Shown in pieces: positions 3,218-57,038 of a DNA stretch of 57,971 bases. Position numbers and translations under genes: made by a program. Numbering within the stretch: position 1 is the stretch's first letter; each line of letters opens with the position of its first letter. This DNA comes from Nanobdellota archaeon. GTDB taxonomy: Archaea > Nanobdellota > Nanobdellia > Woesearchaeales > UBA583. The stretch spans positions 1-57,971 of the forward strand of contig JAIUMM010000006.1 of NCBI GenBank assembly GCA_022565615.1, in the 5' to 3' direction. The notes beneath the pieces are model-generated. The model was not told the origin of the DNA and searched no databases. It saw only the letters and a list, made by a program, of their open reading frames with translations.

Positions 3218-6200
3218 ATGAAATTAATTAAATATATTCAATGTACAGTTATAGTATTTAGTTTAATTTTTTTAAGTTTTGGATTTAATGAAGGAGATGG
3301 ATTAACTTCTCAAACTGCATTTCAAATTTCAACTTGTGACCAATTACAAAATATATCAAATAATTTAAATTCTTATTTTGAGATTGTTCAAAATATTGAT
3401 TGTTCTGACACAGTAGATTGGAATAATGGAGAAGGCTTTCACCCGATAAATAATTTTAATGGGTATTTAGAAGGAAATAAACGAGCTATTAGAGATTTAT
3501 ACATAAACAGATCTAATAGCAATGGAGTTGGATTATTTGGAACTACTACTTCTTCATCAAATGGTGTTATAGCAAATTTGAGATTAGAGAATGTTATTAT
3601 TATAGGAAATAGAGGAGTTGGAGGTATTGGAGGAGAGAATTTTTATGTAGATATTTATAACTCATCAGTTTCAGGATACATCGAAGGTTCAAATAATAGA
3701 GTTGGTGGTTTAGTTGGACAAAGTTTTAGCTCAGAAATTGATCAAGTTGTTTTTGTTGGAGAAATTGTAAGTACTGGAACAAGTTCAAATCAAGAAGTAG
3801 GTGGTATTGTTGGAAGAACGTCTGGAAGTGCTAATGTAGGAACTGCTTTTACAAGAGCTATAATAACTGCAAATAATGGTTGTGTTGGAGGAATAATTGG
3901 AGATTCATCAACTGGAACATCACATTTTAACGAAGTGTATTCAGTTACTCAAATACTTGGAAGTCCTGATAGTGAAGGTACAATTGTTGGTTGTATAAGA
4001 AATACGCTTGATAGTTTTACAAATGTATACTGGGATATAGATGTTGGAGGACTAGATTGGAGAGGTTCTGTAGAATCTGGTTCAACAGGAAATCCTATCA
4101 ATGTTACAGGATTTAATACATCTCAGATGCAAGGTTCTTTAGCTCAAATTAACTTTGCTGGTTTTGATTTTGAAAATACTTGGAGAACTATAACACTTCC
4201 AGAGGATAATTATCCTGTATTTTTTTGGCAAGCAGGAAATTTAGTAAGTGTGACTGGTCAGTTAATAAATAGTTTGACAGGTGAGCCTGTTTCAAATGCT
4301 TTTATTATAGCTAATCCTGATGATTCTAATTTTGGAAAAATAAATACTACAACAAATTCTACAGGACATTATAATATAACATTACAGAGTGTTCCTGAAT
4401 ATGAAGTTATAATTAGGGAAAATATAACTGATCCTAATTTTAATAATTTTACATTTTTAGGAGGAGTTAGACAAACAATTAATCCAAATGATGGAACTAT
4501 AAATTTTGAATTAGGTCCATATTGGGAAGGAAGTGGAGAAGGTGAAAATCCTTTTTTAATTACTAATGTGGAAGAATTACAAACTATGAGATATAATCTT
4601 TTAGGAAATTACCAATTAGCAAATGATATTGATGCAACTCAGACTAGAAATTGGTTTGGAGGAGAAGGGTTTGAACCTATTGGTGATGAGGAAAATCCAT
4701 TTCAAGGAAGTTTGAATGGAAATTCTTCAATGATAACTTCTTTATTTATAAATAGGACTCTAAATAATCAAACTGCGTTATTTAGTTTCACTCAAAATGC
4801 AAGTATAATAGATATGGCATTAGAAGATTTATATGTTGCTGGAGATTTTCGTGTAGGTGGTTTGATAGGTCGTGATGTAGGTTCAAATACAACTATACAA
4901 CGTGTTTTAGTTTCAGGTATCGTTGAAGGAAATAATGATGTTGGAGGAATTGTTGCAAGTGTTTTAAACAGATTGATTTTAAATCAAACTTTTGCTAATG
5001 TCACAGTTGCAGGACTTGATGGAAGTATAGGTGGACTTGTTGGTTGGTCTTCAAATTCAACAATTGTAGACTCATATGCTATTGGGAATGTAACTGGTGC
5101 AGTTGATGTAAAACGAATAGGAGGTTTAGTTGGAGATCATAATGGTGTATTAAATAGAACTTATGCAACAGGTTATGTTAGTACTTCTAGTTTTCCAGAT
5201 CAAATAGGAGGCTTAGTTGGAAGAAACACTGGATTAGTTTACAATTCGTTTTGGGATAATGAAGCTTCAGGACAAAATGAAAGTGCAGGAGGGATGGGTT
5301 TTCCAACTGCAAATATGACAAGTCTTAGGACTTTTTTAGATGCTGGTTGGGATTTATTAAATGTTTGGGGAATAAACACTGAAGAAAATGGAGGTTATCC
5401 TTTCTTATTATGGCAAGATTTTGAATCTTCTTATCCTTTCCAAGAAGGTCTTGGAACAAATGATTCTCCTTATTTAATATTTACTTGTGAAGAACTTCAA
5501 CTTATGAATACAAACTTGAGAGCTTATTACGAACTTGCTAATAATATTGATTGTTCAGATACAATTAATTGGAATGAAGGAGATGGGTTTGAACCTGTTG
5601 GAACTTTACCAGTTCCTTTTGAAGGTTCTCTGCAAGGTAATAGTTTTATAATAAATGATTTATTCATTAATAGAACTGCTACTAACCAAGTAGGTTTATT
5701 TGGGACAACTTGTGACGTTAAGTTAACAAACATTGTTTTAGAAGATGTTTTTATTTTAGGAGATTTCCGTGTAGGTGGACTAGTGGGTAGAGATGTAGGA
5801 GATTTTTCTATTCTAGAGAATATTTCTGTTTCTGGTAATGTTAAAGGAATAACTGATGTAGGAGGAGTTCTTGCAAGTGTACTTAACAAAACTTTTGTGA
5901 GTCAGATTTTTTCGAATGTTAATGTATATGGTTCAGATGGTAGTATTGGTGGTTTAATAGGTTGGTCAGCGTATTCAGAGGTTTTAGACTCTTATTCTAT
6001 AGGTGATGTTATTGGAAATGATACTGTTGAGAGGATAGGTGGTTTAGTTGGAGATAATTATGGTTTCATAAACAGATCTTATTCTACAAGCTTTGTGTCT
6101 CTTGAACCTGAATCAGATTTTGAAGGTGGTTTAGTTGGAAGAAACAGAGCTCTAGTTCAAAATTCATATTGGGATACACAAACTTCAGGACAAAATGAAA

Positions 6201-7045
6201 GTGCAGGTGGGGAAGGTAAAACAACATCTGAGATGAGACTGGTTTTTACATTTGAAAATTGGGACTTCAATAATACATGGTCTGCTACTTGTGATGGTTG
6301 GCATTATCCTGTATTGCAGTGGCAAAATTTATACTTGAGTGAAACTCAGTGTCCAAATTATGTAGCTTCTTCAAGTAGAGGAGGTAGTTCTTCTTCAAGA
6401 ACTGAGATAATTACACAATCTCAAGTAAGTGTGGGGAGTCAAACCCAACTCAGAGAAGGAAGAGATGTTCAATTTGAATCATTACATACATCAGTTACTC
6501 CAGATTTAAATCCACAATCTCCTCAAGCAAGAGAATTTAGACACACTGTGAGATTAAATAGAATTCAAACTAATTTTGTTGATATTACAATTCACTCAGA
6601 CCCTATTAATGTTCGATTACCTCTTGGAGAAGATGTGAGAGTTGATTTAGATAGAGATGGAATCGATGATGTGTTATTGAGATTTGAGGGAATTTACTTT
6701 GCAGAAGCGAGAATTCATATAGAGCAATTACAAATCTTACAAGAAGAAGAAGTTGAAGCAGAAGCAGAAATAATTGAAAACCAGCAAGAAGAAACAATTG
6801 AACAAATCCCATCTCAAGATGAAACTTCATCAACTCAATCCTCTACTCAAACTCAAGAAAGTGTAGTTGAAGAAACTTCAACACAAAGCTTACAAGAAGA
6901 AGAAGTTGAAGCACATTTAATTCAACAAAAGAGAGATTCTTCAAATACAACTACTCAGTTTATATTATTATTAATTGGTTTTTTAATTATTCTTGCAAGT
7001 TTTATGTGGTTTTTAATCATTGAAAAAAGAGAGAATAATAAATAA
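3218..7045 (+). CDS. large GLUG-repeat surface protein/adhesin
   Basis: Three modules starting G.G....P/AF.I....LQ, many VGGLVG repeats, signal peptide, E/T/Q linker, C-terminal TM. Confidence 0.85.
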   Translation: MKLIKYIQCTVIVFSLIFLSFGFNEGDGLTSQTAFQISTCDQLQNISNNLNSYFEIVQNIDCSDTVDWNNGEGFHPINNFNGYLEGNKRAIRDLYINRSNSNGVGLFGTTTSSSNGVIANLRLENVIIIGNRGVGGIGGENFYVDIYNSSVSGYIEGSNNRVGGLVGQSFSSEIDQVVFVGEIVSTGTSSNQEVGGIVGRTSGSANVGTAFTRAIITANNGCVGGIIGDSSTGTSHFNEVYSVTQILGSPDSEGTIVGCIRNTLDSFTNVYWDIDVGGLDWRGSVESGSTGNPINVTGFNTSQMQGSLAQINFAGFDFENTWRTITLPEDNYPVFFWQAGNLVSVTGQLINSLTGEPVSNAFIIANPDDSNFGKINTTTNSTGHYNITLQSVPEYEVIIRENITDPNFNNFTFLGGVRQTINPNDGTINFELGPYWEGSGEGENPFLITNVEELQTMRYNLLGNYQLANDIDATQTRNWFGGEGFEPIGDEENPFQGSLNGNSSMITSLFINRTLNNQTALFSFTQNASIIDMALEDLYVAGDFRVGGLIGRDVGSNTTIQRVLVSGIVEGNNDVGGIVASVLNRLILNQTFANVTVAGLDGSIGGLVGWSSNSTIVDSYAIGNVTGAVDVKRIGGLVGDHNGVLNRTYATGYVSTSSFPDQIGGLVGRNTGLVYNSFWDNEASGQNESAGGMGFPTANMTSLRTFLDAGWDLLNVWGINTEENGGYPFLLWQDFESSYPFQEGLGTNDSPYLIFTCEELQLMNTNLRAYYELANNIDCSDTINWNEGDGFEPVGTLPVPFEGSLQGNSFIINDLFINRTATNQVGLFGTTCDVKLTNIVLEDVFILGDFRVGGLVGRDVGDFSILENISVSGNVKGITDVGGVLASVLNKTFVSQIFSNVNVYGSDGSIGGLIGWSAYSEVLDSYSIGDVIGNDTVERIGGLVGDNYGFINRSYSTSFVSLEPESDFEGGLVGRNRALVQNSYWDTQTSGQNESAGGEGKTTSEMRLVFTFENWDFNNTWSATCDGWHYPVLQWQNLYLSETQCPNYVASSSRGGSSSSRTEIITQSQVSVGSQTQLREGRDVQFESLHTSVTPDLNPQSPQAREFRHTVRLNRIQTNFVDITIHSDPINVRLPLGEDVRVDLDRDGIDDVLLRFEGIYFAEARIHIEQLQILQEEEVEAEAEIIENQQEETIEQIPSQDETSSTQSSTQTQESVVEETSTQSLQEEEVEAHLIQQKRDSSNTTTQFILLLIGFLIILASFMWFLIIEKRENNK

Positions 7046-7081: not shown

Positions 7082-8395
7082 TTATTTTAATAATTTCATT
7101 GCACTAAATAGTGTATTTTCTTCTCCTATATTACACATTAATTGCATTCCAATTGGAGTGTTTCCTCTTGTAGTCTCAACTATTGCTTTTGGAACAACCC
7201 CACTACAAATTCCTGCTAAATTTGCAAGAACAGTAAATGCGTCATACGCATATTCTTCTTCAGGTGTGAGTGTTTCATCAAAAGAGTGAGGAAGCTTAGG
7301 AGTTGTTGGAAGTAAAATTGCTTGAACTTGCGTAAACACTTCTTGAAATTCTTCTTTTAATAATTCTCTTACTGCAAGAGCTTTTTTATAATATGCTCCT
7401 TCAAATTCACTTTGAGTAATTAATTCTCCTCCTTTCATTCTAAGTTGTAATTCACTTTGAGCCACCTCATTAATATTTTGACCATACTTAACACCATCAA
7501 ATTTTCTAGTACCTGAGAACACTTCTGTATATACAATAGGATAATATGCAGCAACTCCAAGTTTCATATGCTCAATTGACACTTCTATAATTTCAACCCC
7601 TTTTGCTTTCAAATGAGAAATTGAATTATGATAAATCTTTTTTATTTCTTCATCAGCAATTAATTCATCAACTCCTTTTAAAATTCCAATTTTTTCAATC
7701 TTAGTATTCTTTGAAGTAAAGTCTTCAATTTGTAGAGTAGTTGCATCTCTTTCACTTTGTTTTCCAATAACTTCTAATATTAAATCCATATCTTCAATTG
7801 AATTACTAAGTACTCCTACTTGATCAAAACTCATACTAGAGTCAACTACTCCATATCTACTAACTCTTCCATAACTAGGTTTTAAACCAAATACTCCACA
7901 GTGGGAAGCAGGATTTCTACAACTCCCACCAGTATCAGTTCCAAGAGCAATATCACACATTGAAGCTGCAACAGCAGCAGCAGAACCTGAACTTGTACCA
8001 CCTGGAATAATATTTGTATTTTTTGGATTGAGTGTTTTTCCAAAATAACTATGCTCACCAGTTGAACCTTGTGCAAATTCATCATTATTAACAACACCAA
8101 TAATTATTGCATCTTCTTTTTCAACATATTGAACAACATCTGAGTTATAAATTGCTTTTACATTTTCAAGCGTTTTTGAAGCACATGAACACACAACTCC
8201 TTCTTTGAAAATATTACTTTTAATTGCAATACATTTACCAAATAATTTTCCTCGTTGTTCTTGTGGTTTTTCATCTAATTCTCTTGCTCTTTTTAGAGCA
8301 TCTTCTTCTAACACTTCTAGGAAGATGTTTAACTCATTATTTTTTTCTTTAATTTGTTTAAGATAATATTCAACTCTTTGGGCACACGTTTTCAT
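7082..8395 (-). CDS. gatA: Asp/Glu-tRNA amidotransferase subunit A
   Basis: Amidase signature GGTSSGSAAAVAA, GTDTGGSCRNPAS, KPSYGRVSRYG. Confidence 0.9.
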   Translation of the reverse strand: MKTCAQRVEYYLKQIKEKNNELNIFLEVLEEDALKRARELDEKPQEQRGKLFGKCIAIKSNIFKEGVVCSCASKTLENVKAIYNSDVVQYVEKEDAIIIGVVNNDEFAQGSTGEHSYFGKTLNPKNTNIIPGGTSSGSAAAVAASMCDIALGTDTGGSCRNPASHCGVFGLKPSYGRVSRYGVVDSSMSFDQVGVLSNSIEDMDLILEVIGKQSERDATTLQIEDFTSKNTKIEKIGILKGVDELIADEEIKKIYHNSISHLKAKGVEIIEVSIEHMKLGVAAYYPIVYTEVFSGTRKFDGVKYGQNINEVAQSELQLRMKGGELITQSEFEGAYYKKALAVRELLKEEFQEVFTQVQAILLPTTPKLPHSFDETLTPEEEYAYDAFTVLANLAGICSGVVPKAIVETTRGNTPIGMQLMCNIGEENTLFSAMKLLK

Positions 8396-11332: not shown

Positions 11333-12088
11333 ATGAAAGATAAGATAATTGTAAGGGGTGCAAGAGAGCATAATCTTAAAAATATTGATGTTGAAATTCC
11401 TAAATTCTCTTTTACAGTAATTACAGGACTTAGTGGTTCAGGAAAATCTACACTTGCTTTTGATACTATTTATAATGAGGGAAATCGTAGATATGTTGAG
11501 AGTTTATCTTCATATGCAAGACAATTTTTAGGAAATTCTAATAAACCTGATGTTGATAGTATTGAAGGTTTGAGTCCTGCTATATCAATTGAACAAAAAA
11601 CAACTTCAAAAAATCCAAGATCAACTGTTGGAACTGTAACTGAAATTTATGATTATCTGCGTTTATTATATGCAAGAGTTGGAAAACAATATTGTCCAAA
11701 ATGTGGGGAAGAAATTTCTCCTCAATCTCCTCAAAGTATAGTTACTACAATTTTAGGAATGTATAATGAGAAGAAAATTATGATTCTAGCTCCTATGATT
11801 GTAGGACAAAAAGGAACGTATGAAAAAGTATTTGAAGATTGTAAAAAAGAAGGGTTTTCAAGAATTAGAGTAGATGGAGAAATATATCACACAGATACTG
11901 TAAAAGATGAGGTCACACTTGAGAGATATGAGAAACACTGGATAGAGTATGTAATTGATAGAATTACGGTAAATCAAGATAATAGACAACGATTGACAGA
12001 GGCAGTAGAGCAGGCTCTACATTTTTCAAAAGGTAATGTGAAGATATTAGATGTAGAAAAAGAGAAGGAAGTTTTAAAAACATTATAA
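11333..12088 (+). pseudogene. uvrA: UvrA N-terminal fragment (251 aa); truncated or split gene
   Basis: [57 protein letters not shown]; stops after the UvrB-binding region. Confidence 0.85.
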
Positions 12089-30901: not shown

Positions 30902-31051
30902 AAATAAACAAATAAATATAAATTTAAAATAGTTTCTATAACTTTTCTTTTTAAAAGTGATTTTAATAGTAACCTTTAACCTTAGAGTTTGCATTATTTT
31001 TAACATTTTTTGAAAATTAAATTTAAAAGCAAACAAAGATTATTCAAATAT

Positions 31052-31666
31052 ATGGAAAAAGATTTACAAACCACAGTACTTGTGACATCAGATTTATATG
31101 CTTCAATTGATACATTATGTAGTTGTGAAGCATACAGTTATTTTTTATTACAAAATGGATTTAAATCTACACATATTCAAGAAAAAAATTTAATTGAACT
31201 TGAGCAAAAAGTATTTGAATTTTGTGGATTAGAAACTCCTATTAAAACAGATATTTTTATTGAAGAAAATAACTATAATAAAGTAGAGGAAAATACAGAA
31301 ATTAAATTTATCTGTATAAATATTAAGTCATTTGAAAATATGCCCAAACAAATTACTCCTCAAAACATTCAAGGAATAATGGGTAATGAAAAACCAGATT
31401 TTTTTGATCATTTTGAAGAAAATATTCCAATGAAGCATATTGAAAATGTAAATTCATTCTCAACATTAATTGCTGAAAAATTCAAATATACAAATACTTC
31501 AATCTCTCCTCAAATTGCATCCCTATTATTAGTTGGAATAATTTTAAGTTTAAATGGATTAGAAGAGAGTCAAACAACTAATAGAGATTTTATAGCAGTT
31601 GAATATTTAGAGCAATTCTCAACAATTTCAAAAGATAAAATTAATGCATTAGTAAATCAATTATAA
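31052..31666 (+). CDS. degenerate DHH-family (family II pyrophosphatase-like) domain
   Basis: IDTLCSCEAYS, ENVNSFSTLIAE, ASLLLVGII, TTNRD mirror the PpaC N-domain; no DHH motif. Confidence 0.6.
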   Translation: MEKDLQTTVLVTSDLYASIDTLCSCEAYSYFLLQNGFKSTHIQEKNLIELEQKVFEFCGLETPIKTDIFIEENNYNKVEENTEIKFICINIKSFENMPKQITPQNIQGIMGNEKPDFFDHFEENIPMKHIENVNSFSTLIAEKFKYTNTSISPQIASLLLVGIILSLNGLEESQTTNRDFIAVEYLEQFSTISKDKINALVNQL

Positions 31667-33607
31667 TAAATCTTTACTTTCTTTAATACTTAAGATACCT
31701 TTAATACTTTTAAGTTCTCTAAATACTTCATCAAATGAATCAGTTTTATTAATTTTTAATTTCATAAGAACACTACCATCTTTATATATTCTATTTTTCA
31801 AATTTAATGGTGTAAGTTTAAACTTGTGTAACGAATTTAAGATATCAATTAAAATACCTGAATTTGAGTCTAAATGTAGCTCTAATGTAATATTATTGTA
31901 CAACTCTCTATCCCACATAAGCTTTATAGTCCTATTAAGACTAAATTTAGCATTATCACAATTTGCGTTATGAATTGTAATTTCTTTACCGTTTTGTGAT
32001 TCAACCCCAATTATTGGAGTTTTAAGTTTAAATTTACAACACAGAGGTTTTTTAATTTTAGAGTATACTTCAAGACCTTCAATGTGTGTAATTATCTCAC
32101 TAAATTGTTCTTCACTTGTAGATTCTCTTTTATTTGCAAGTCTTAATCCTAAACTTTGTCTAATTGAAATTTTAGCTTTATTAGTTGTTGCAATTTTTAA
32201 ATTTTTTTCAGTAGGTTTAGATTTTGTATTAGTAATAATTTCAACAATATCTCCATTAAATAATACTTTATCTAAATTTTGAGCAACCCCATTAACTTTA
32301 CACTTTATTGCTGAATCTCCAACTTCAGTATGGATGTAATATGCAAAATCAATTGCTCTTGCACCTTGAGGAAGAGAGATGATGTCAAATTTAGGAGTAA
32401 ATACAAATATTTCACTATCAAATAAATTATATTTTAAAATTTGCATTAAATTAAAAGATTCTTTATTTTCTTGTTCCCATTGTAATAATTCTCTTAGCCA
32501 CGTAATTCTTTTATCAAATAATTTATCTTTTCCAACATCTTTATATTTCCAATGAGCAGCTACTCCATATTCAGCAAGTTTGTGCATATGAATATCTCTA
32601 ATTTGAACTTCAACAGGACTATCAATAATTTGAGAATGAATTACAATGTGAAGTGATTGATATCCATTATCTTTTGGATGTAATATATAGTCTTTTTCCC
32701 TATGTGGATATGTTTTATAATGAGTGTGAAATAATGAGAGAATTTCATAGCATTTAGAAATATCTGTTGTAATTACTCTAATTGCATATAAATCATAAAT
32801 CTGTTCAAAACTAATTTTTTTTTTAGTAATTTTTCTATAAATACTATACATACTTTTACATCTTCCAAGAACAGTTACTCCTTCAACATTGTGTTTATTA
32901 AGAAAATGTTTTAATTCATTAACACCTTTTTGAACAATTTGAAGTCTTACTTCTTTTTTAAGTCCAAGTTTTTGTTTAATATTTTCAAAATCCTTTGGAT
33001 ATAAATATTTAAAAGATAAATCTTCAAGTTCCCATTTCAAAGAATAAATACCTATTTTTTGAGCAATTGGTGCATAAATAAAGAGTGTTTCTTTTGCAAT
33101 TCTTTGTTGAGCATTTTCACTTCTTGAACCTAGAGTTTGCATATTGTGAAGCCTATCACAGAGTTTAATAATTAAAATTCTCATATCTTTTGATGCACTT
33201 AAAAGCATCTTTCTAAGCTCAGTTAAATTTTTTTCAATATCTGTTCTTCCTTTATTTTCATTTTTACCAAGTTTAGTAAGTCCTTCAACTAAAAGAGAAA
33301 TTTCATCTCCAAATATTTTTTTAATTTCTTCAATTTTAACATTTGTATCTTCAACTACATCATGAAGAAGAGCTGCACAAATAGATTGAGGTCCAAGTCC
33401 ATAATGATAACTAAGTTTTGCAACTTCAATTGGATGGGTAATATATAAATCACCTGATTTTCTATATTGTGTTGAGTGAGCTTTTTTTGCAACTTCATAT
33501 GCTTTAGTAATAAGTTGTTTATTAAACTCAGTAGGAAGACTAATTAAGAACATAGAAAAAATTTCATCAACTTGTTTAGTTGTATTAATTATTATTTCTG
33601 ATTTCAT
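31661..33607 (-). CDS. rel: long bifunctional RelA/SpoT homolog (Rel)
   Basis: HD (ALLHDVVEDT, KLCDRLHNM), synthetase (REKDY, NGYQSLH, EVQIR, AEYGVAAHWKYK), TGS, CC..H..C and ACT-like domains. Confidence 0.95.
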   Translation of the reverse strand: MKSEIIINTTKQVDEIFSMFLISLPTEFNKQLITKAYEVAKKAHSTQYRKSGDLYITHPIEVAKLSYHYGLGPQSICAALLHDVVEDTNVKIEEIKKIFGDEISLLVEGLTKLGKNENKGRTDIEKNLTELRKMLLSASKDMRILIIKLCDRLHNMQTLGSRSENAQQRIAKETLFIYAPIAQKIGIYSLKWELEDLSFKYLYPKDFENIKQKLGLKKEVRLQIVQKGVNELKHFLNKHNVEGVTVLGRCKSMYSIYRKITKKKISFEQIYDLYAIRVITTDISKCYEILSLFHTHYKTYPHREKDYILHPKDNGYQSLHIVIHSQIIDSPVEVQIRDIHMHKLAEYGVAAHWKYKDVGKDKLFDKRITWLRELLQWEQENKESFNLMQILKYNLFDSEIFVFTPKFDIISLPQGARAIDFAYYIHTEVGDSAIKCKVNGVAQNLDKVLFNGDIVEIITNTKSKPTEKNLKIATTNKAKISIRQSLGLRLANKRESTSEEQFSEIITHIEGLEVYSKIKKPLCCKFKLKTPIIGVESQNGKEITIHNANCDNAKFSLNRTIKLMWDRELYNNITLELHLDSNSGILIDILNSLHKFKLTPLNLKNRIYKDGSVLMKLKINKTDSFDEVFRELKSIKGILSIKESKDLL

Positions 33608-33653
33608 TTTTCATATGTTGGATATTATTATAATTAGTGTAAGTTTTAAAAAT

Positions 33654-34952
33654 TTAATATATTAATTGACAAGAGTGACTATTTAAATTAAGTTGATTAT
33701 TATCTATTGAATCAATTATTAAATAAGGACTAGACATTGAAGTAGTAAATAAATTATGCGTTCTATTTGTATATAATTGATCTATACTAAAGTAAATACT
33801 TTGATAAAAATTATTTATACTTGAACTTGGCAAAAAACTTTGACAGTAAGTTTCATTAGTGCTAATTGGATCTTGTAATATAATTTCAATTTTGTTCTTA
33901 CTTAATTCATATACAAACTCACTTCTTTGAATAAGTGAGTTATATGCACATTCAAAATTACTAGGAGTTGAAAACAGAGAAAACATAAAAATAGTTATTT
34001 CATCATTAGTATCATAAAATCTAAATATTTTAGGTTCATCTTCATTTAATTGATTTGTAATTAAATAGTCACTTTGATGATTTGAATATGTATAAGAAAA
34101 ACTACCTTCAACAATTCTACCTGTATTTGTCAAATCAATAGTTGAAGGCATTTTTTGAAAATTTGATTTGATATGATATACAGGAATTCTCTCTCTTGAA
34201 AATTGAGTATTAATATATTCTTCAATAAAATTTTCATTAAAATCTAAAAATACAACACTACTTGGATTTAATGTATCAATTTGTGTTCTCATTTCAGATT
34301 CAGTGAGTCCATTTTCTAAATCCCAAGTGATAAATGATAATTGTTGATAACTCCTTCTAGTGTTTAAAATTCCTTGAAAGAGTGAGTACGTAGGTCCATT
34401 AGATTGATTAATAATAATAATATGACTTTTAGGAACTACTGCAATCATAGGACTAATTGACATTGGAAAATTAAAATTTTCAAGTATTAAATAAATATTT
34501 TGAGGAAGCTCATTATTAATTGGAGGCATAATAAAAGGATAAATATCCAGATATTCATTTAAAGGTTCATAAATTAATTCTCTTCCATCAATACTGAGTC
34601 TTGTAAATTCTCCTCCTATACATTGTAAATTAGCATCTTTATTTCCCATTAATGGAATTGTATTAAAAACAGTAGCACTACTTACACTTAAACTCTGAGC
34701 TCGTACATTTAGTGTATTTGTAAGTGCTTTTGCAAATTCTAAATTATTATTTTCTTGTTCTATAGTCCAATATGTATTTAAAATTGAATATATTGAAATC
34801 ATTAAAACTCCTCCTATAATAGTCATAAATACCCATGAAAAAACTGTTGTCGTTATTCCTTTTTTAGAAGAATAAAAAGGTTTTAAGAAAATATTTAAAT
34901 ATTTATCATTTAAATTGTTTTTTCTAAAAAAAGTATTTTTAAATAAATTCAT
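33654..34952 (-). CDS. pilin-like protein with class III signal peptide
   Basis: SKKG/ITTTVFSWVFMTIIGGVL. Confidence 0.6.
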   Translation of the reverse strand: MNLFKNTFFRKNNLNDKYLNIFLKPFYSSKKGITTTVFSWVFMTIIGGVLMISIYSILNTYWTIEQENNNLEFAKALTNTLNVRAQSLSVSSATVFNTIPLMGNKDANLQCIGGEFTRLSIDGRELIYEPLNEYLDIYPFIMPPINNELPQNIYLILENFNFPMSISPMIAVVPKSHIIIINQSNGPTYSLFQGILNTRRSYQQLSFITWDLENGLTESEMRTQIDTLNPSSVVFLDFNENFIEEYINTQFSRERIPVYHIKSNFQKMPSTIDLTNTGRIVEGSFSYTYSNHQSDYLITNQLNEDEPKIFRFYDTNDEITIFMFSLFSTPSNFECAYNSLIQRSEFVYELSKNKIEIILQDPISTNETYCQSFLPSSSINNFYQSIYFSIDQLYTNRTHNLFTTSMSSPYLIIDSIDNNQLNLNSHSCQLIY

Positions 34953-34992
34953 ATTAATATTTATAAATTTGAACTATTTAAATATATTTGTA

Positions 34993-35478
34993 ATGAATAA
35001 AGACTCAAAATATGAACAAAAATTCAAAATTAATTATATTACTAATTATGTTGGATTAAAAAATTTAATAATTTTTCTAATTATAGTTTTATCTTTAGTA
35101 TTATTTGATCAATTAATTAAATTAGAGTTCTGTACAACTCAAGTATTATTTTCAAAATGTATTTTAAATACAGGCTCAGCATATAGTATGTTTTCATCTA
35201 TTGGACTTTATTCTTTAGTTATTGCTATACTTGGAGTATTAATGAGTATCATTTTACTTATGTATAATTCTTATTTTATTAAAGAATTTGGAATGACTCT
35301 AACATCTTTACTTATGGCTGGAATCATATCAAATACTATCGATAGAGTATTTATTGGAGCAGTAAGAGATATGCTTTCAATCCCATTTATTCATTTTTTT
35401 GGAATTTTTAATGTAGCAGATATATATCTCACAATTGCGGGTTTATATATATTATATATACTTTTAAGTTCAAAATAA
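34993..35478 (+). CDS. lspA: lipoprotein signal peptidase II
   Basis: DQLIK, NTGSAYS, SNTIDRV..GAVRD, FNVAD; start moved to ATG 34993. Confidence 0.88.
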   Translation: MNKDSKYEQKFKINYITNYVGLKNLIIFLIIVLSLVLFDQLIKLEFCTTQVLFSKCILNTGSAYSMFSSIGLYSLVIAILGVLMSIILLMYNSYFIKEFGMTLTSLLMAGIISNTIDRVFIGAVRDMLSIPFIHFFGIFNVADIYLTIAGLYILYILLSSK

Positions 35479-35563
35479 TTTGAAATATATTAAAGTAATT
35501 TGTATTTTCATAACTTTATAAGAATAACTAAATATTTTATATAACTTTGATTATTATTTTTAT

Positions 35564-36175
35564 ATGTATATCGTACACGCATTAATAGATGGGTTAAAGG
35601 TACTTAGCTTTGATAAGCAGGTAATTAGAAGAGTTTCTAAGGAGAAGAGTCTTGAAGATATTTTTTTAAGCACTCTCTTTGTAAACTATATGGTTGTATT
35701 AGTTTGCTTTTTAGTGATTGTTGCAATGGGAGGACAATTATATTTAGAAGATAGATTATTAAATATGCCTGTATTAATGGGACTATTATTGATGTATCCA
35801 TTTGCATTCAATATTGTAGTTTATGCAATTTATTCATTATTTGGATTGATGGCTGAGTTAGTAAATACTAAAAATCATGTAAGACCACTACTCTCAACAG
35901 GATTTCATTCAGCAATTGCATATGCTCCAATTTTATATGGTATTGCAGTAATTACAACTGCATCAATTACTCTTGGACTTATTTTATTTACAGTATTTGC
36001 AATTTACTTTTTAGTGATTATGTTTTACATCATTTCAACAATTTACAAATATTCATTTGCACAATCAATGATGGTATTATTAATTCCTTTATTAATTGCA
36101 GGAATTGCTTTAACTATTCTCTCTGTATTTGTGCCACAAATTAGTCAAAATATTATTGCATTTGTGTTTGCTTAG
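35564..36175 (+). CDS. Yip1-like membrane protein
   Basis: Five TM helices in Yip1-like spacing. Confidence 0.5.
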   Translation: MYIVHALIDGLKVLSFDKQVIRRVSKEKSLEDIFLSTLFVNYMVVLVCFLVIVAMGGQLYLEDRLLNMPVLMGLLLMYPFAFNIVVYAIYSLFGLMAELVNTKNHVRPLLSTGFHSAIAYAPILYGIAVITTASITLGLILFTVFAIYFLVIMFYIISTIYKYSFAQSMMVLLIPLLIAGIALTILSVFVPQISQNIIAFVFA

Positions 36176-36282
36176 TTCTTTTACTAAGTAATAAAAACTA
36201 TTTTTTTGTTTTTCTTATAAATTATTTAGGAATTTTAAAATTAATTAAAGTAGAATATTAGTAATAAAATTAATTATAGGAA

Positions 36283-45537: not shown

Positions 45538-45661
45538 ATATAATTTAAGTTAGATATTTATTTAAACCTTTGCTAGCGTTTTTACAATTTTTTATATTAT
45601 TTTACAATTTTTCTCTTAAAAAATTAAAAAAAATTAAAAAGAACTAATGTTTTATAGTAGT

Positions 45662-47617
45662 ATGAATGTAATAAAACAACTTCCCTCTGAACTTTCAGAT
45701 CAAATTGCTGCAGGAGAAGTTATTCAAAATCCAGCTTCATTAATTAAAGAATTAATTGAAAATTCAATTGATGCTCAAGCTACTTCTATTGAAATTGAAC
45801 TTACAAATTCAGGATTTGAGAGTATTACTGTAAAAGATGATGGAGTTGGAATTGAAAAAATATATTTACACTTAGCACCAAAAAGGCATGCAACTTCAAA
45901 AATTTCTTCTTTTGATGATCTATATAATATTTCAACAATGGGATTTAGAGGAGAAGCACTTGCATCAATTTTTTCAGTTGCAAAAGTAGTATTAAAATCA
46001 AAACCAAAAAATCAAGAATATGCGTATCAAATTTCAACTTCTTCTATGAATGTTGAGAAAACTGCACATAATAATGGGACTTCTATTACTGTTGAAGATT
46101 TGTTTTATAATACTCCTGCAAGAAAAAAATATCTCAAAAACTCACAATTAGAATTAAAAGAAATTCTTAAAGTTATAAAGTTAATAAGTATTATTCATCC
46201 TCATCTTAAAATTTCTCTAAAAAATAATTCTAAGGAGATATTTAAAAAAACTCATTATTCAAATTTAAAAGACAATTGTTTAGAAGTTTTAGAATTAAAT
46301 AGTGAAGTTGAATTATTTGATATATCTATTACATCTCCTCATTTTATTATTTCAGGTTTTATAATAAATCCAAATGATTTAAATTATGCAACTAGAAAGC
46401 ATGAATATGTTTATGTAAATTCAAGACCTGTTGAGTCAAAAATTATTCATAAAGCAGTTTTAAATGGAATTGGAACAAATATTCACTTAGGAAGATTTCC
46501 TTTGTACGTATTAAATATTATAATTGATCCACAACTCATTGATGTAAATATTCATCCAGCAAAACTTGAAATTAAATTTGAACAAGAAGCATTTATTTTT
46601 GAACAAATAAGTAAAGGAATTCAACAATTATTTCAAGAACAATTACTTTTCAAAAAAGCTCAAATTTCAAGTAAGGAGAAACAAACTACATTTATTGAGA
46701 AATCTAAAAATGAATTAAGTAGTAATCTTACTAATAAATATAATAAAAATAATACTCAAAAATCATATTTTTTAAGAGATTCACAGCAGGAGTTAGAATT
46801 AGTATCATCTTCAATTCAAGAGAAAATAACTAATAATTCATACGATGAAAGAAAAAATAATATTAATGAGGCTATGAAAAATGATTCTAATGATACTCAA
46901 AATAAAGTTCGTACAAATAGTTCAATTAAAACACCTTTAATAATATCAAAAGAAACTCAAAACTTAGAAGAAGTTCAAGGTCCCTTGAGTGAATATTTTT
47001 CAAATTATAGAATTTTAGGTCAATTACATAAAACATTCATATTAGTTGAAACTCAAAGAGGGTTGATTGTAATAGACCAGCACGTTGTTGAAGAAAAATT
47101 TTATTTTGAATTGTTTAAACAATATTATAGTTCAAATAATCTACAAAAAAATCAACGAACTCAATATCAAGAACTGTTAAAACCAATTATTATTCCAATC
47201 TCAAAAGAAGAAGAGTTAGTATTTAGTGAGATACAATCAATTTTAGAGCAATTAGGATTTGGGGTTGAATTACTTAAAGAAAGAGAAATTATTGTAAGAA
47301 CTCTTCCTTTTAATTTAAAAGGTAAATGTCTGGATGTATCAATTATTAAAGATGTATTAGATAGTATGAATAATTCTTCTAGTTTTGAATTAATAAAAAA
47401 TTCAAAAGAATATCTACATTCTCATATTATTGAACACTTAGCAGTTCTTTCATGTAAATCTTCAATTAGAGCAGGTGATGAACTTACAATGAGCCAAATG
47501 CATGAATTAATTCATAAATTAAAAAGATTAGAAGAACCTTTTAATTGTCCTCATGGTAGGCCTATAATTGTTGAATATTCTTTTAATGATTTTGAAAAGA
47601 TGTTTAAAAGAAAATAA
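45662..47617 (+). CDS. mutL: DNA mismatch repair endonuclease MutL
   Basis: IAAGEV, ENSIDA, GFRGEALAS, DVNIHPAK, DQH...E....E, SCK, CPHGRP. Confidence 0.96.
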   Translation: MNVIKQLPSELSDQIAAGEVIQNPASLIKELIENSIDAQATSIEIELTNSGFESITVKDDGVGIEKIYLHLAPKRHATSKISSFDDLYNISTMGFRGEALASIFSVAKVVLKSKPKNQEYAYQISTSSMNVEKTAHNNGTSITVEDLFYNTPARKKYLKNSQLELKEILKVIKLISIIHPHLKISLKNNSKEIFKKTHYSNLKDNCLEVLELNSEVELFDISITSPHFIISGFIINPNDLNYATRKHEYVYVNSRPVESKIIHKAVLNGIGTNIHLGRFPLYVLNIIIDPQLIDVNIHPAKLEIKFEQEAFIFEQISKGIQQLFQEQLLFKKAQISSKEKQTTFIEKSKNELSSNLTNKYNKNNTQKSYFLRDSQQELELVSSSIQEKITNNSYDERKNNINEAMKNDSNDTQNKVRTNSSIKTPLIISKETQNLEEVQGPLSEYFSNYRILGQLHKTFILVETQRGLIVIDQHVVEEKFYFELFKQYYSSNNLQKNQRTQYQELLKPIIIPISKEEELVFSEIQSILEQLGFGVELLKEREIIVRTLPFNLKGKCLDVSIIKDVLDSMNNSSSFELIKNSKEYLHSHIIEHLAVLSCKSSIRAGDELTMSQMHELIHKLKRLEEPFNCPHGRPIIVEYSFNDFEKMFKRK

Positions 47618-52851: not shown

Positions 52852-53214
52852 TTATTGATTAAATAATAAAATTTCAATTTGTTCAGGGTTCATTTTCAAC
52901 TCTTTTACTTTTTTAGAAGGTCCAATTACTGTAATTCCTACTTCATATTTTAATAAAAATGTAGCAAGTTTAAACCTAAGTCTATCAAAAAATGAAGAAT
53001 TGTGTTTAACATTTAAAAAAGCAATATCAATTCCACTAAACGTTTCATTAACATGCTTTAAACTTTTAGAAGTAAGAGCTAATTCTTCTTCATTTGTAAG
53101 CCTTCCTTCAAGAATTACTAAACTTCCATCTTTTACCATTTTATAGATTTTATCAATTTTTTTAGTTGAATCCATAGAGGAAATAATTGAATTTGAAATA
53201 ATTTTAACGTCCAT
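52852..53214 (-). CDS. DUF2073/OapB-like protein
   Basis: ILEGRL..EE..L, FSGID, GITVIGP; directly downstream of the small GTPase. Confidence 0.75.
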   Translation of the reverse strand: MDVKIISNSIISSMDSTKKIDKIYKMVKDGSLVILEGRLTNEEELALTSKSLKHVNETFSGIDIAFLNVKHNSSFFDRLRFKLATFLLKYEVGITVIGPSKKVKELKMNPEQIEILLFNQ

Positions 53215-53220
53215 TTTTAA

Positions 53221-53847
53221 TTAATTTAATTGCTTAAATACCTCCTTATATAATTCCTCAAGATTCTCACCAGTCACAGCACTTACACCTACAAGAGGAT
53301 AATCTGGAAATACTAGTTTTATTTTATCTACACTTGCATTTTTCAAATCAATTTTATTTGCAACAATAATTATTTTTTTATCTTTTGCAACTAAATTACC
53401 AATAAGAGTAATATTTACTTGTGAATAAGGATTTATAGTTGCATCAAGCACAACTAATACGCAATCAACTTTTTCAACCCATCTAATACTTTCGATTACT
53501 CCTTGTGTAGCTTCTCTTGCTCTCTCTTTTGCATCTTGTTTTTTCATTCCTTTTTTCACAAAATCTTCAAAATCAATTTTAGTAGCAATACCTGGAGTAT
53601 CTACAAGAGCAAAGTTAATTTTTTTAGAACCTCGCTCAAGAGTTAATTCTTCAACTTTTTGAACACTTCTGGTTTCATGTTCAACTTCTGAAGTTGAAAA
53701 TGTAGTCTTTGCATCTTCTCCTAAAATATCTTTAATAATCGTATTTGCAAGAGTTGATTTTCCAGCATTAGGAGGCCCATATAATCCTAATGAGAATTCT
53801 TTTTTTTTCTTAAAAAAATTAAGAAATGAGAAAAATAGTTTTTTCAT
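53221..53847 (-). CDS. Era-like small GTPase (OapA-like)
   Basis: GPPNAGKST, HETR, DTPG, NKID, SA. Confidence 0.85.
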   Translation of the reverse strand: MKKLFFSFLNFFKKKKEFSLGLYGPPNAGKSTLANTIIKDILGEDAKTTFSTSEVEHETRSVQKVEELTLERGSKKINFALVDTPGIATKIDFEDFVKKGMKKQDAKERAREATQGVIESIRWVEKVDCVLVVLDATINPYSQVNITLIGNLVAKDKKIIIVANKIDLKNASVDKIKLVFPDYPLVGVSAVTGENLEELYKEVFKQLN

Positions 53848-54596: not shown

Positions 54597-57038
54597 TTAT
54601 AACTCCTCTTCCACTTCTTCTTCATTAGCAATTTTCTCAACTCTTTGCACTAAATCACCAGGTGAGAGATTTACAACTTTAACTCCTTTAGTATTTCTTC
54701 CAATAATTGAGACATCACTCACATATGTTCTAATAATTTTACCCTCTTTTGTCATCAATAATACTTCATCATCTTCTCTTACAGCTTTTAGAGTTACAAC
54801 ATTCCCATTTCTCTCATCAGCTTTAATATCAATTACACCTCTTCCAGCTCTTTTAATAGTTGGATACTCACTAATTAAAGTTCTCTTACCATATCCATTC
54901 TCACACACTGTAAGAAGAGTAGTTCCAGCTTGTGCAAGTTCCATTCCAACAACTATTTCATCATTTCTTAAGTTCATAGCTTTAACTCCTCTTGCAGTTC
55001 TTCCTAATACTGATAAATCATCTTGTTTAAACCTAATTGCAAGTCCAACGTTACTCTCAATAATTACATCTTCATGTCCTTGTGAATACATTACAGCAAG
55101 AACACTGTCTCCCTCATCAAGTCCAATAGCTCTAATTCCACCAGCTCTTGGTTTTGAGAAATTAGCAACCTCAGTTTTTTTGATAATTCCTTTTTTAGTT
55201 AAGAAAATTAAATATCCTTCGTTTAAATTTGAAATATTAATTACATTTGAAATTTTTCTACCTCTTAAATCAATATAATTAACAATAGGCCTTCCTTTTG
55301 AAATTCCAGTTGCAGTTGGAACTTCATATGCTTTCATCCAATTCACAACTCCATCACTTGTAAAAATTAAAAGAGTATCTTTAGAATTAGATACAAATAA
55401 ATCACGAACAGTATCTTCTGCTTTTATGTGTGCATTATTTCCTTTTCCTCCTCTTTTTTGTGCTCTATATGAATCAAGTGGAACTTTTTTAATATAATCA
55501 TTTTGAGTAATCATTACAACAAAGTCTTCATCTTGAATTAAATCTTCAATATTCATATCTCCAATATCTGAAATTAATTTAGTTTTTCTCTCATCTCCAA
55601 ATTTTTCCATAATTTCAATACTTTCTTGTTTGATGATTTCATACTGTCTAATATCTTTATTTAAAATATCTTCTAAATCCTTAATAGTTTCAAGGGTTTG
55701 ATTATATTCATCTCTAATTTTACCCATTTCAAGACCTGTTAATTTTTGAAGTCTCATATCTAAAATAGCTTGTGCTTGAATTTCACTAAATCCAAATTCA
55801 CTTACCAAACCTTCTTTAGCTTCAGGTCCTGATTTAGAACCTTTAATTAGTGCAATTACTCTATCAATATTATCAAGTGCTTTTGTAAGTCCTTCTAAAA
55901 TATGTAATCTCTCTTGTGCTTTTCTTAAATCAAATTGAGTTCTTTTAATAATTACATCTTTTCTAAATGCAATAAAGTGTCTTAAATAGGAACCTAGATT
56001 TAAAATTTGGGGAACACCATCTACAATTGCAAGCATTTTTGTATTAAAATTTGTTTGAAGAGTTGTAAATTTATATAATTGATTTAAAATAACATTAGGG
56101 TCAGCTTCTCTTTTAATTTCAATAACAACTCTTACTCCTCTTTTATTACTCTCATCACGAATATCAGAAATATCTTTTAATTTACCTACCTTTACAAGTT
56201 CAACAATATTATTAATTAAATTTAATTTATTTACTTGATATGGAATTTCTTCTAAAATAATTGCACTTTTCCCTCTTTCTTTTTCTTCAATTGAACATAC
56301 TGCTTTTTGAGTAATTGCACCTTCTCCTGTAATTAAGTAATCTTGAATTCCTTTATTTTTTAAAATAGTAGCACCAGTTGGAAAATCAGGTCCTTTTACA
56401 AATCCTTGTCTTACTAGCTCTTCTGTTGAAACTTGAGGATTATCAATTACATAAATTAAAGCTTGAGTTAATTCTCTTAAATTATGAGGAGGAATATTTG
56501 TAGCCATACCAACAGCAATCCCAGATGAACCATTTAGAAGTAAGTTAGGAAATTTAGCAGGCAATACTGCAGGTTCTTGAAGAGTATCATCAAAATTATT
56601 CTTCCAAGCAACAGTTTCTTTGTCAATATCTTCTAAAAATTTTTCAGAAAGCTTAGACATCCTAGCTTCAGTATAACGCATAGCAGCAGGATTATCTCCA
56701 TCTACACTTCCAAAATTACCTTGTCCATCTACAAGTAAGTATCTCACAGACCAATATTGAGCAAGTCTTACCATAGCATCATAAATTGAAGTATCACCAT
56801 GGGGGTGATACTTACCCATAACTTCTCCTACAATTCTTGCTGATTTTTTATATGCTTTATTAGAATAATTTCCAAGTTCTTTCATTGAATAAATGATTCT
56901 TCTATGAACTGGTTTTAGACCATCTTTTGCCTCAGGAAGAGCACGTCCAACAATAACACTCATAGCATATGAAAGGTATGCTTTTTTCATCTCATCTTCA
57001 ATAAAAACGTCCTTAGTTCTCAAATTACTTTCATTCAT
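54597..57038 (-). CDS. gyrA: DNA gyrase subunit A
   Basis: [15 protein letters not shown], GyrA box QKRGGKG, C-terminal pinwheel repeats. Confidence 0.97.

Follow-up and report, generated by a model that had tools for sequence, protein, structure and literature searches.

The contig JAIUMM010000006.1 of a Nanobdellota archaeon (Woesearchaeales, assembly GCA_022565615.1) was analyzed over its whole length of 57,971 bp, referred to here as the window. The window carries rel, a gene for a 648-amino-acid (aa) long RelA/SpoT homolog (RSH). There is little doubt that the open reading frame (ORF) encodes a full-length Rel of the bifunctional type and that this Rel enzyme is a property of the archaeal chromosome. 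It is real, native, and old, and it is probably functional. The explanation favored here, at a probability of roughly 0.6, is that window Rel is a native and functional enzyme derived from one old bacterial transfer, which would turn over the alarmone (p)ppGpp (guanosine tetra- and pentaphosphate) and would be switched by the ribosome.

Gene and Domain Organization

The gene and its domains are located on the reverse strand as follows.

31661..33607 (-): rel, long RSH (Rel type) of 648 aa; ORF with ATG start, stop codon included; TIGR00691
33047..33502 (-): (p)ppGpp hydrolase domain HD_4, residues 36-187; Pfam 2e-40
32537..32866 (-): (p)ppGpp synthetase domain RelA_SpoT, residues 248-357; Pfam 1.2e-37
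32231..32410 (-): TGS domain, residues 400-459, containing H426; Pfam 5.6e-15
32063..32230 (-): helical (AH) domain remnant, residues 460-515, with linker helix 1 but neither the AH core nor linker helix 2
31907..32062 (-): zinc-finger/RIS domain, residues 516-567, with C523, C524, H546, and C550; the block aligns with RelA 588-739
31664..31906 (-): ACT/RRM domain, residues 568-648; fold in the model and profile match

An earlier note, made from the letters of this DNA without database searches, had described an intact HD hydrolase, an RxKD synthetase, a TGS domain, a CC..H..C zinc finger, and an ACT-like end. Each of these was found in its place. The hydrolase residues R49, H58, H82, D83, E86, D87, D151, and N155 (pattern RHHDEDDN) are all present, and all 35 bacterial rows of the alignment have the same residues at these positions. 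The synthetase residues R249, K251, K259, D272, E333, and Q335 are present as well, and the RxKD motif reads REKD at residues 303-306. The RxKD motif is linked with bifunctional RSH enzymes. In the TGS domain, H426 stands opposite H420 of the Bacillus subtilis Rel (alignment to 6yxa) and is the equivalent of Escherichia coli RelA H432. The four putative zinc ligands, C523, C524, H546, and C550, align with C612, C613, H634, and C638 of E. coli RelA.

With NCBIfam TIGR00691 (spoT_relA) the protein scores 569.1 bits, above the cut-off of 499.2; the genome scan gave 545.8 bits. Its scores with the narrower equivalog families are far below their cut-offs, at 328.7 bits against 728 for RelA (NF008124; the hydrolase motif is intact) and 429 bits against 947 for SpoT (NF008303). 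Among solved structures, B. subtilis Rel (6yxa) is the best relative, with an E value of 1.1e-120 for residues 31-495, and the closest characterized relatives are the Rels of Bacillota, with 45-47% identity over the N-terminal 70% of the protein.

An AlphaFold model was built on 32 members of the archaeal clade described below and has a mean pLDDT of 81.1. The model places beta strands at residues 517-565 in the zinc-finger domain (ZFD) and a beta-alpha-beta-beta-alpha-beta fold at 572-644 in the ACT domain. The single-sequence NCBIfam match of the latter is weak (E 0.0039, residues 570-641), and the profile match of the whole ZFD and ACT block to RelA 588-739 has an E value of 8.9e-18. Foldseek recovered RelA on the 70S ribosome (5iqr, the best match, E 5e-35) and full-length SpoT (7qpr) over the full length of the model, and it gave a TM score of 0.86 to Staphylococcus aureus Rel (7oiw) for the catalytic half.

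The genome of this archaeon (92% complete) has one HD_4 match and one RelA_SpoT match, and both are within rel. Beyond window Rel, the genome thus has no detectable synthetase or hydrolase of the RSH type.

Archaeal Ownership of the Locus

The genome measures 1.21 Mb in 38 contigs (92.4% complete and 1.5% contaminated), and the window is the whole of one of them. Archaeal markers on this contig are S6e, a class-I CCA-adding enzyme, Kae1/TsaD, P1, P0 (L10P insert), L1, OapB, and TruD; the earlier reading that S6e, P0/P1, Kae1, and the CCA enzyme share the contig with rel was correct. The GC content is approximately 0.24 across rel and its flanks. The relatives at 82 and 71% identity are named "Candidatus Woesearchaeota archaeon" and "Candidatus Nanoarchaeia archaeon" at NCBI, and these names place the archaeon in DPANN.

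A check of read coverage across rel, which had been proposed in the earlier note, supports the locus. An independent Logan contig of 5396 nt, from a run that may be the source of the assembly, covers positions 31282-36200 with 0 differences. This span takes in nearly all of rel and three genes upstream. Another Logan contig covers 30647-31307; the depth is flat at approximately 7, without any reported joints. Identical pieces of rel (32046-33017) and of both flanks are also present, at a depth of approximately 4, in a second sample from this study. In addition, the gene is carried by three relatives with single-contig genomes (G007, G012, and G035).

The closest characterized relatives of window Rel are bacterial (Bacillota Rel), and there are other bacterial-type genes in the window (GyrA, MutL, and LspA). 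These two points could speak for an assembly or binning artefact, or for a recent isolated transfer of a bacterial rel, yet an origin of this kind is extremely improbable. A chimeric assembly is ruled out by the re-assembly across the junctions, with no differences and no joints, and by the relatives that carry rel in single-contig genomes. An isolated recent transfer nested in a bacterial clade is ruled out by the grouping of the archaeal copies in one clade outside the sampled bacteria and by the presence of the gene in 172 of 401 genomes. The uniform GC around rel and the preserved synteny with Kae1 and with a genus-specific upstream ORF also stand against an artefact or a recent transfer.

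Distribution and Phylogeny

Among 19 genus-mates of the archaeon, 16 have full-length copies of rel (47-82% identity), two have copies that are cut by contig ends, and one is without the gene. Genomes from other families of the order possess rel in 7 of 21 cases, at 39-43% identity. For the phylum, 401 evenly spread genomes, all at least 90% complete, were searched at E <= 1e-40. Long Rel was found in 172 of them (43%) and in 130 of the 280 genera, both in the order of the window and in other orders of the class. The open frames are mostly 615-705 aa in length. Presence is often all or none by family: the gene was found in 40 of 42 genomes of f32, which is the commonest family, 10 of 10 of f30, 7 of 7 of f24, 8 of 8 of f42, and 0 of 29 of f25.

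Two trees were made. The first was a FastTree of a 260-row alignment with the spacer columns removed. Its rows were 38 archaeal loci, 77 named bacterial loci (from at least 80, after two fragments shorter than 590 aa and one identical duplicate were dropped), and 145 unnamed representatives of 50%-identity clusters (from the best 150 in a library of 1.8 billion proteins, after five under 590 aa were dropped). The named bacterial loci served as outgroups; no archaeal locus was among those listed from named genomes. All 38 archaeal loci and eight unnamed short forms make up one clade with a support of 97. Six more short forms attach outside of it (85 and 94), giving a 52-row clade that consists of short forms only.

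The second tree was made with IQ-TREE (LG+C20+F+G4 PMSF with a quick search) from 98 rows and 578 columns. Its archaeal rows were 21 of the earlier 38 loci and 20 distant loci that were newly fetched; the other rows were 22 unnamed representatives and 35 bacterial loci from 10 phylum labels and unlabelled sources, with 45 bacterial loci left out. The 35 bacterial and eight unnamed rows are split from the 41 archaeal loci and 14 unnamed short forms with an SH-aLRT support of 99. The phylogeny that the earlier note had called for thus gave one archaeal clade, apart from the 35 named bacterial Rels. One of the unnamed short forms is identical to an archaeal locus, and others nest among the archaeal rows. 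For 10 unnamed short-form representatives, the presumed taxa come from such nesting in the trees. Since the IQ-TREE tree is unrooted and without bootstrap, and contains no named rows from the Candidate Phyla Radiation (CPR) or Spirochaetota, a single origin is claimed and a donor is not. The trees indicate that the archaeal Rels have a single origin outside the sampled bacteria.

Long RSHs were found in 36 of 41 bacterial phyla (Atkinson et al., 2011, PMC3153485). Because they are near-universal in bacteria and patchy in archaea, transfer from bacteria to archaea is the economical reading of the direction.

The archaeal part of the gene tree is not fully taxonomic. Families f31 and f32, which belong to the order of the window, group with other orders on long branches (support 89). 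Two genomes, G170 and G391, each have two long-RSH matches, which suggests paralogy or transfer within archaea. In G170 the two are located at C13:2784-4364 and C49:5224-7038; one is window-like (41% identity) and one is f32-like (33%).

Unnamed proteins with intermediate spacers between TGS and zinc finger (84-96 aa) stand at the base of the bacterial side of the unrooted tree. Their look-alikes in the Atlas are mostly bacterial, with Spirochaetota or Pseudomonadota the commonest. As a pointer to the donor lineage these proteins are a lead only.

Loss of the Helical Core

The region between the TGS domain and the zinc finger had been described in the earlier note as much shorter than in bacterial Rel, and the measurements agree. 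The spacer was taken as the residues between the TGS end (query 459) and the CC motif (query 523) in the 260-row MAFFT alignment. It has 63 residues in window Rel and 61-72 in 38 of 38 archaeal loci, against 124-161 in 77 of 77 named bacterial loci. For the unnamed representatives, the spacer is 61-82 residues long in 17, 84-100 in six, and longer than 110 in all others. Among the matches listed, the RelA_AH family (PF19296) is found in none of the homologs P0002-P0064 (625-667 aa) and in all 56 bacterial homologs P0065-P0120 (713-899 aa). Many of the archaeal homologs keep RelA_RIS (PF28438) and ACT_4.

When a profile of the clade is set against E. coli RelA, only two blocks align, 59-508 and 588-739; RelA 509-587 is therefore left without a counterpart in the clade. 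In the model of window Rel a full helical domain is absent between TGS and ZFD, and the remnant has only the helices 467-472, 476-486, and 500-506 with a low-confidence loop at 490-498.

The anatomy of this region is known from RelA on the ribosome. According to the consulted sections of Loveland et al. (2016, PMC4974054), the AH domain of E. coli RelA is residues 485-580, the AH core packs on the D stem of the tRNA, and linker helix 1 lies under the acceptor arm. Linker helix 2, of approximately 15 residues, packs on ACT, and RelA has its anchor, formed by RIS and ACT, at the A-site finger, S19, and L16. Set against this anatomy, the unmatched segment 509-587 corresponds to the AH core and linker helix 2, both of which the clade has lost. 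A deletion of approximately 80 residues is thus common to the archaeal clade, and linker helix 1, the CCA-stacking histidine, RIS, and ACT are kept.

A reduced Rel of another kind is present in Candidatus Moranbacteria, a member of CPR (L043:5941-7440). Its frame is approximately 500 aa long and stops right after the first helix that follows TGS. Neither a zinc finger nor an ACT domain was detected in the 1.8 kb downstream.

Residue Conservation

Conservation was compared in 55 archaeal or short rows and 35 bacterial rows. Each of R249, K251, K259, D272, D306, Y316, E333, and Q335 is present in 55 of 55 rows of the archaeal set, and so is each of H426, C523, C524, H546, and C550. The hydrolase positions are less strict, with D83 in 46 of 55 and D87 in 42 of 55. 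When the two closest relatives are set aside, the mean identity of the 55 rows to window Rel is 0.47 for HD, 0.47 for the synthetase domain, and 0.50 for TGS. For the C-terminal parts it is 0.25 (AH remnant), 0.28 (ZFD), and 0.20 (ACT). The pattern is one of purifying selection, with long-term constraint on both active sites and on three of the four domains of the regulatory part.

Hydrolase-Degenerate and Hydrolase-Only Lineages

Several of the archaeal Rels seem to have lost the hydrolase. In rows from families f90, f31, and f32 (L133-L140) and in P0175, D83 is lost and the pair H82 D83 is replaced by QG, HG, HT, or HQ. E86 and D87 are varied in these rows, and all synthetase residues are intact. 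These proteins look like RelA-type monofunctional synthetases that would have arisen within archaea.

The opposite condition also occurs. An HD_4 match was found in 215 of the 401 genomes against long Rel in 172, and there are therefore approximately 43 genomes with HD_4-only genes. These are small-alarmone-hydrolase-like genes without a long RSH (for example in 6 of 6 genomes of f29, in 6 of 29 of f25, and in f91).

These HD_4-only genomes, in which the hydrolase function alone is retained in some lineages, give some room to the explanation that Rel acts here mainly as a hydrolase or on another nucleotide. It could clear the alarmones of neighbors or hosts, or make (p)ppApp, and there would be no endogenous (p)ppGpp signalling. 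The consulted parts of reviews from 2021 and 2023 and of a 2025 paper likewise have (p)ppGpp as so far unreported in archaea. A role of this kind is nonetheless improbable, since the synthetase residues are stricter (55 of 55) than the hydrolase residues D83 and D87, and since several sublineages lost the hydrolase motif and kept the synthetase, which is the reverse of what a hydrolase-only function predicts. That window Rel turns over (p)ppGpp in vivo is, from its residues, likely.

Proposed Mechanism

The favored explanation, a native Rel that turns over (p)ppGpp under the control of the ribosome, can be put as a series of steps. A bacterial long RSH would have been transferred once, long ago, into the ancestor of a large part of the archaeal class, with chromosomal inheritance since then. 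The N-terminal half would make (p)ppGpp from ATP and GDP or GTP, and then hydrolyze it again. The C-terminal half would be a trimmed bacterial sensor in which the TGS histidine, linker helix 1, and the zinc-finger and ACT domains are retained. The zinc-finger/ACT module may dock on the archaeal ribosome at the equivalent of bridge B1a. H38, uS19, and uL16 are found in all ribosomes. [quoted passage not shown] In bacteria, the histidine H420/H432 stacks on the 3' CCA of tRNA, and its mutation abolishes activation (PMC7797070; PMC7058999).

Activation by ribosome and tRNA has the conserved sensor parts as its basis, and it can be given about an even chance. The wider proposal, that a DPANN branch runs a (p)ppGpp stringent response with a Rel that was captured once, re-fitted to the archaeal ribosome by deletion of the AH core, and then diversified to include dead-hydrolase lineages, is tentative, with the odds somewhat against it.

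Two further analyses were made. In a metatranscriptome of the same study, of which approximately 6% of the run was read, a single read was found at 90-95% likeness, which speaks neither for nor against expression; among the listed holders of the sequence, none is an RNA record. A complex prediction of the ZFD-ACT region (residues 508-648, with alignment) with the archaeon's own uS19 scored 0.00, which is no answer either way.

A number of observations weigh against a Rel that is switched by the ribosome and serves a stringent response. The segments that pack on the D stem (AH core) and on ACT (linker helix 2) are missing in the clade. The B. subtilis TGS alone gives no stable complex with tRNA, and it is the TGS-Helical fragment that binds deacyl-tRNA specifically (PMC7797070). 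The identity of the C-terminal parts to window Rel is low even inside the clade (0.20-0.28). The position of RelA R629, which is an A-site-finger contact (PMC7058999), is K541 in window Rel; in the clade it is G in 18, K in 15, N in 10, and R in 5 of the 55 rows, and R is present in 23 of 35 bacteria. In place of the Arg that follows the zinc-finger His, most rows of the clade have K (30) or N (12).

The lineages with a degenerate hydrolase add to these points. According to a rule given by Atkinson et al. (2011, PMC3153485), a synthetase that has no hydrolase beside it is not tolerated in bacteria, and an extra HD_4 was therefore predicted in the degenerate lineages. It is not commoner there. 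At least two HD_4 matches were counted by hand in 5 of 40 f32 genomes, compared with approximately 21 of 132 other Rel-positive genomes; the count covers RSH-type HD_4 only, and the degeneracy of f32 is taken from three inspected sequences.

The search for targets belongs here as well. A Gmk-like kinase and an Era-like GTPase in the window had been named in the earlier note as candidate targets, and neither could be upheld. The kinase ORF (674-1249) has only the P-loop half of guanylate kinase, scores 48.5 bits against a cut-off of 160, and is not a bona fide Gmk. The GTPase ORF (53221-53847) is a generic small GTPase domain of 208 aa, below every equivalog cut-off, and is not a bona fide Era. 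Both are located more than 20 kb from rel. A near full-length bacterial-type Gmk is encoded on another contig of the genome (G000:C15:1401-1940, L144), at 136 bits, just under the cut-off of 160. Bacterial-type Gmk is present in only 24 of the 401 genomes and in none of four archaeal control genomes. A cross-check by hand found 15 of these 24 to be Rel-positive, compared with 172 of 401 overall, a mild enrichment among kin that are not independent; 157 of the 172 Rel-positive genomes are without bacterial-type Gmk. The classic direct targets are few, as HGPRT and HflX were not found in the archaeon's own genome (92% complete). In vitro effects of ppGpp on the Sulfolobus aEF1-alpha are cited in the consulted part of PMC12542715.

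Several of these points fit a different explanation, in which the enzyme is active and independent of the ribosome. Loss of the AH core would have ended the sensing of A-site tRNA, and the C-terminal domains would be autoinhibitory or ligand-binding, with SpoT-like regulation. Possible ligands would be a metabolite for ACT, for example, or free tRNA or some other partner for TGS. It is the deleted segment that contacts the tRNA body and steadies ACT on the ribosome (PMC4974054, in the sections consulted) and that, in B. subtilis, must accompany TGS if tRNA is to be bound specifically (PMC7797070). The A-site-finger contact position R629 is not conserved. The reduced C-terminal region of the CPR Rel L043, which is one example, indicates that such a region is viable in ultra-small organisms. 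However, the CCA-stacking histidine and the four zinc ligands are present in 55 of 55 rows, which is hard to explain if the contacts with tRNA and ribosome were abandoned. Linker helix 1 is kept, and the whole ZFD and ACT block still matches RelA (E 8.9e-18). An active enzyme that has left the ribosome is rather unlikely, but it is a more serious alternative to ribosomal switching than a hydrolase-only role.

Comparison with Known Systems

The Rels of Bacillota (B. subtilis, 6yxa/6htq; S. aureus, 7oiw; RelSeq, 1vj7) have the same order of domains: HD, SYNTH, TGS, (helical), ZFD, and ACT. Like them, window Rel has all of the catalytic residues of hydrolase and synthetase, the RxKD motif, and the TGS histidine (H426, corresponding to H420). 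Unlike them, it is approximately 80 residues shorter between TGS and ZFD, has no RelA_AH match, and would work with the ribosome of an archaeal host. The C-terminal domains are just 13-24% identical to those of bacteria.

E. coli RelA is similar in another respect. The clade profile aligns to RelA 59-508 and 588-739, the zinc ligands correspond, and RelA is the best Foldseek match. In contrast to RelA, window Rel has an intact HD domain and RxKD, there is no counterpart of RelA 509-587, and R629 is replaced by K541. The motif of E. coli RelA is of the ExDD type. RelA is hydrolase dead, whereas the hydrolase motif of window Rel is intact.

The occurrence of Rel in archaea is already on record. 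In 2011, archaea were stated to lack long RSHs (Atkinson et al., PMC3153485), and the earlier note had started from the premise that these enzymes are not archaeal. That premise is outdated. In the consulted sections, Li et al. (2021, mSystems, PMC8407392) report RelA/SpoT genes for Woesearchaeota (41.7%), Pacearchaeota (21.3%), Nanoarchaeota (19.0%), and Diapherotrites (69.0%), with a predicted acquisition of these DPANN genes from Bacteria. Those genes are, as far as these sections go, of the same family and from the same lineages as the ones described here, and the 172 of 401 genomes (43%) found here agree with the 41.7%. NCBI records also name the relatives "RelA/SpoT family protein." Window Rel is thus a structural variant of a known family. 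The treatment in the consulted sections of Li et al. (2021, PMC8407392) consists of one sentence and a supplementary figure, without domain anatomy, the AH deletion, residue analysis, or the hydrolase-degenerate sublineages. For the deletion of the AH core, the monophyly, and the hydrolase-degenerate lineages, no earlier description was found in CC-licensed PMC articles and bioRxiv; supplements such as Fig. S34 of Li et al. and the RSH tables of Jimmy et al. (10.1101/575399) may list the proteins. In the parts of the archaeal second-messenger reviews (2021 and 2023) and of the 2025 paper that were consulted, (p)ppGpp is described as not found in archaea and the DPANN rel genes are unmentioned.

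The small alarmone synthetases and hydrolases (SAS/SAH) of Euryarchaeota are likewise archaeal RSH members that have been attributed to bacterial transfer (Atkinson et al., 2011, PMC3153485). They differ in being single-domain proteins of single species, whereas the window type is a multi-domain long RSH with regulatory C-terminal domains and is found clade-wide.

A conserved full-length Rel, to all appearance functional, in approximately 43% of the sampled genomes of the phylum makes the use of alarmones by archaea experimentally addressable on a defined 648-aa protein. For the bacterial field, the clade-wide loss of the AH core, together with a CCA-reading histidine and a ribosome anchor, is a natural deletion mutant. 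The clade could also be used to find out whether archaeal ribosomes are able to support a bacterial stringent factor. The hosts of the gene are ultra-small and probably host-dependent, with little biosynthesis, and an alarmone system would bear on how symbionts sense starvation. A DPANN stringent response, if true, would give Archaea their first native alarmone system and would serve as a natural experiment to show which parts of the bacterial sensor can be dispensed with.

Neighboring Genes and Other Features of the Window

Two ORFs flank rel.

33654..34952 (-): ORF of 432 aa without a Pfam or NCBIfam family, 46 nt upstream of rel on the same strand
31010-31666 (+): ORF of 218 aa, convergent to rel and overlapping its stop by 6 nt

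The 432-aa ORF encodes a protein with a hydrophobic N-terminal segment. It is located beside rel in 11 of 11 genus-level loci, at 21-73% identity by tblastn, and may be co-transcribed with rel. Kae1 adjoins rel in 8 of 26 loci from other families and is 3.5 kb away in the window. The 218-aa ORF has a weak likeness to Mn-dependent inorganic pyrophosphatase of the DHH type (E 4e-7 to 3e-9, far below cut-offs). It is kept only in the two closest relatives.

Other genes of bacterial type are present on this archaeal contig: MutL (45647-47617, +), GyrA (54597-57038, -), and LspA (34915-35478, +). In addition, there is a GatA-like amidase (7082-8395, -) and a 251-aa ORF (11333-12088, +) that has only the UvrA interaction domain.

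A 1275-aa ORF (3218-7045, +) contains GLUG motifs, a region like the N-terminal part of M26 peptidases, and a CarboxypepD_reg-like domain. This stretch is the only one with raised GC (0.33-0.34 compared with approximately 0.24), and it has a strong positive GC skew. The ORF may encode an acquired surface protein. The homolog of OapB, an origin-associated protein (52852-53214, -), adjoins the small GTPase and is near gyrA, and the cumulative GC skew turns at approximately 26-27 kb.

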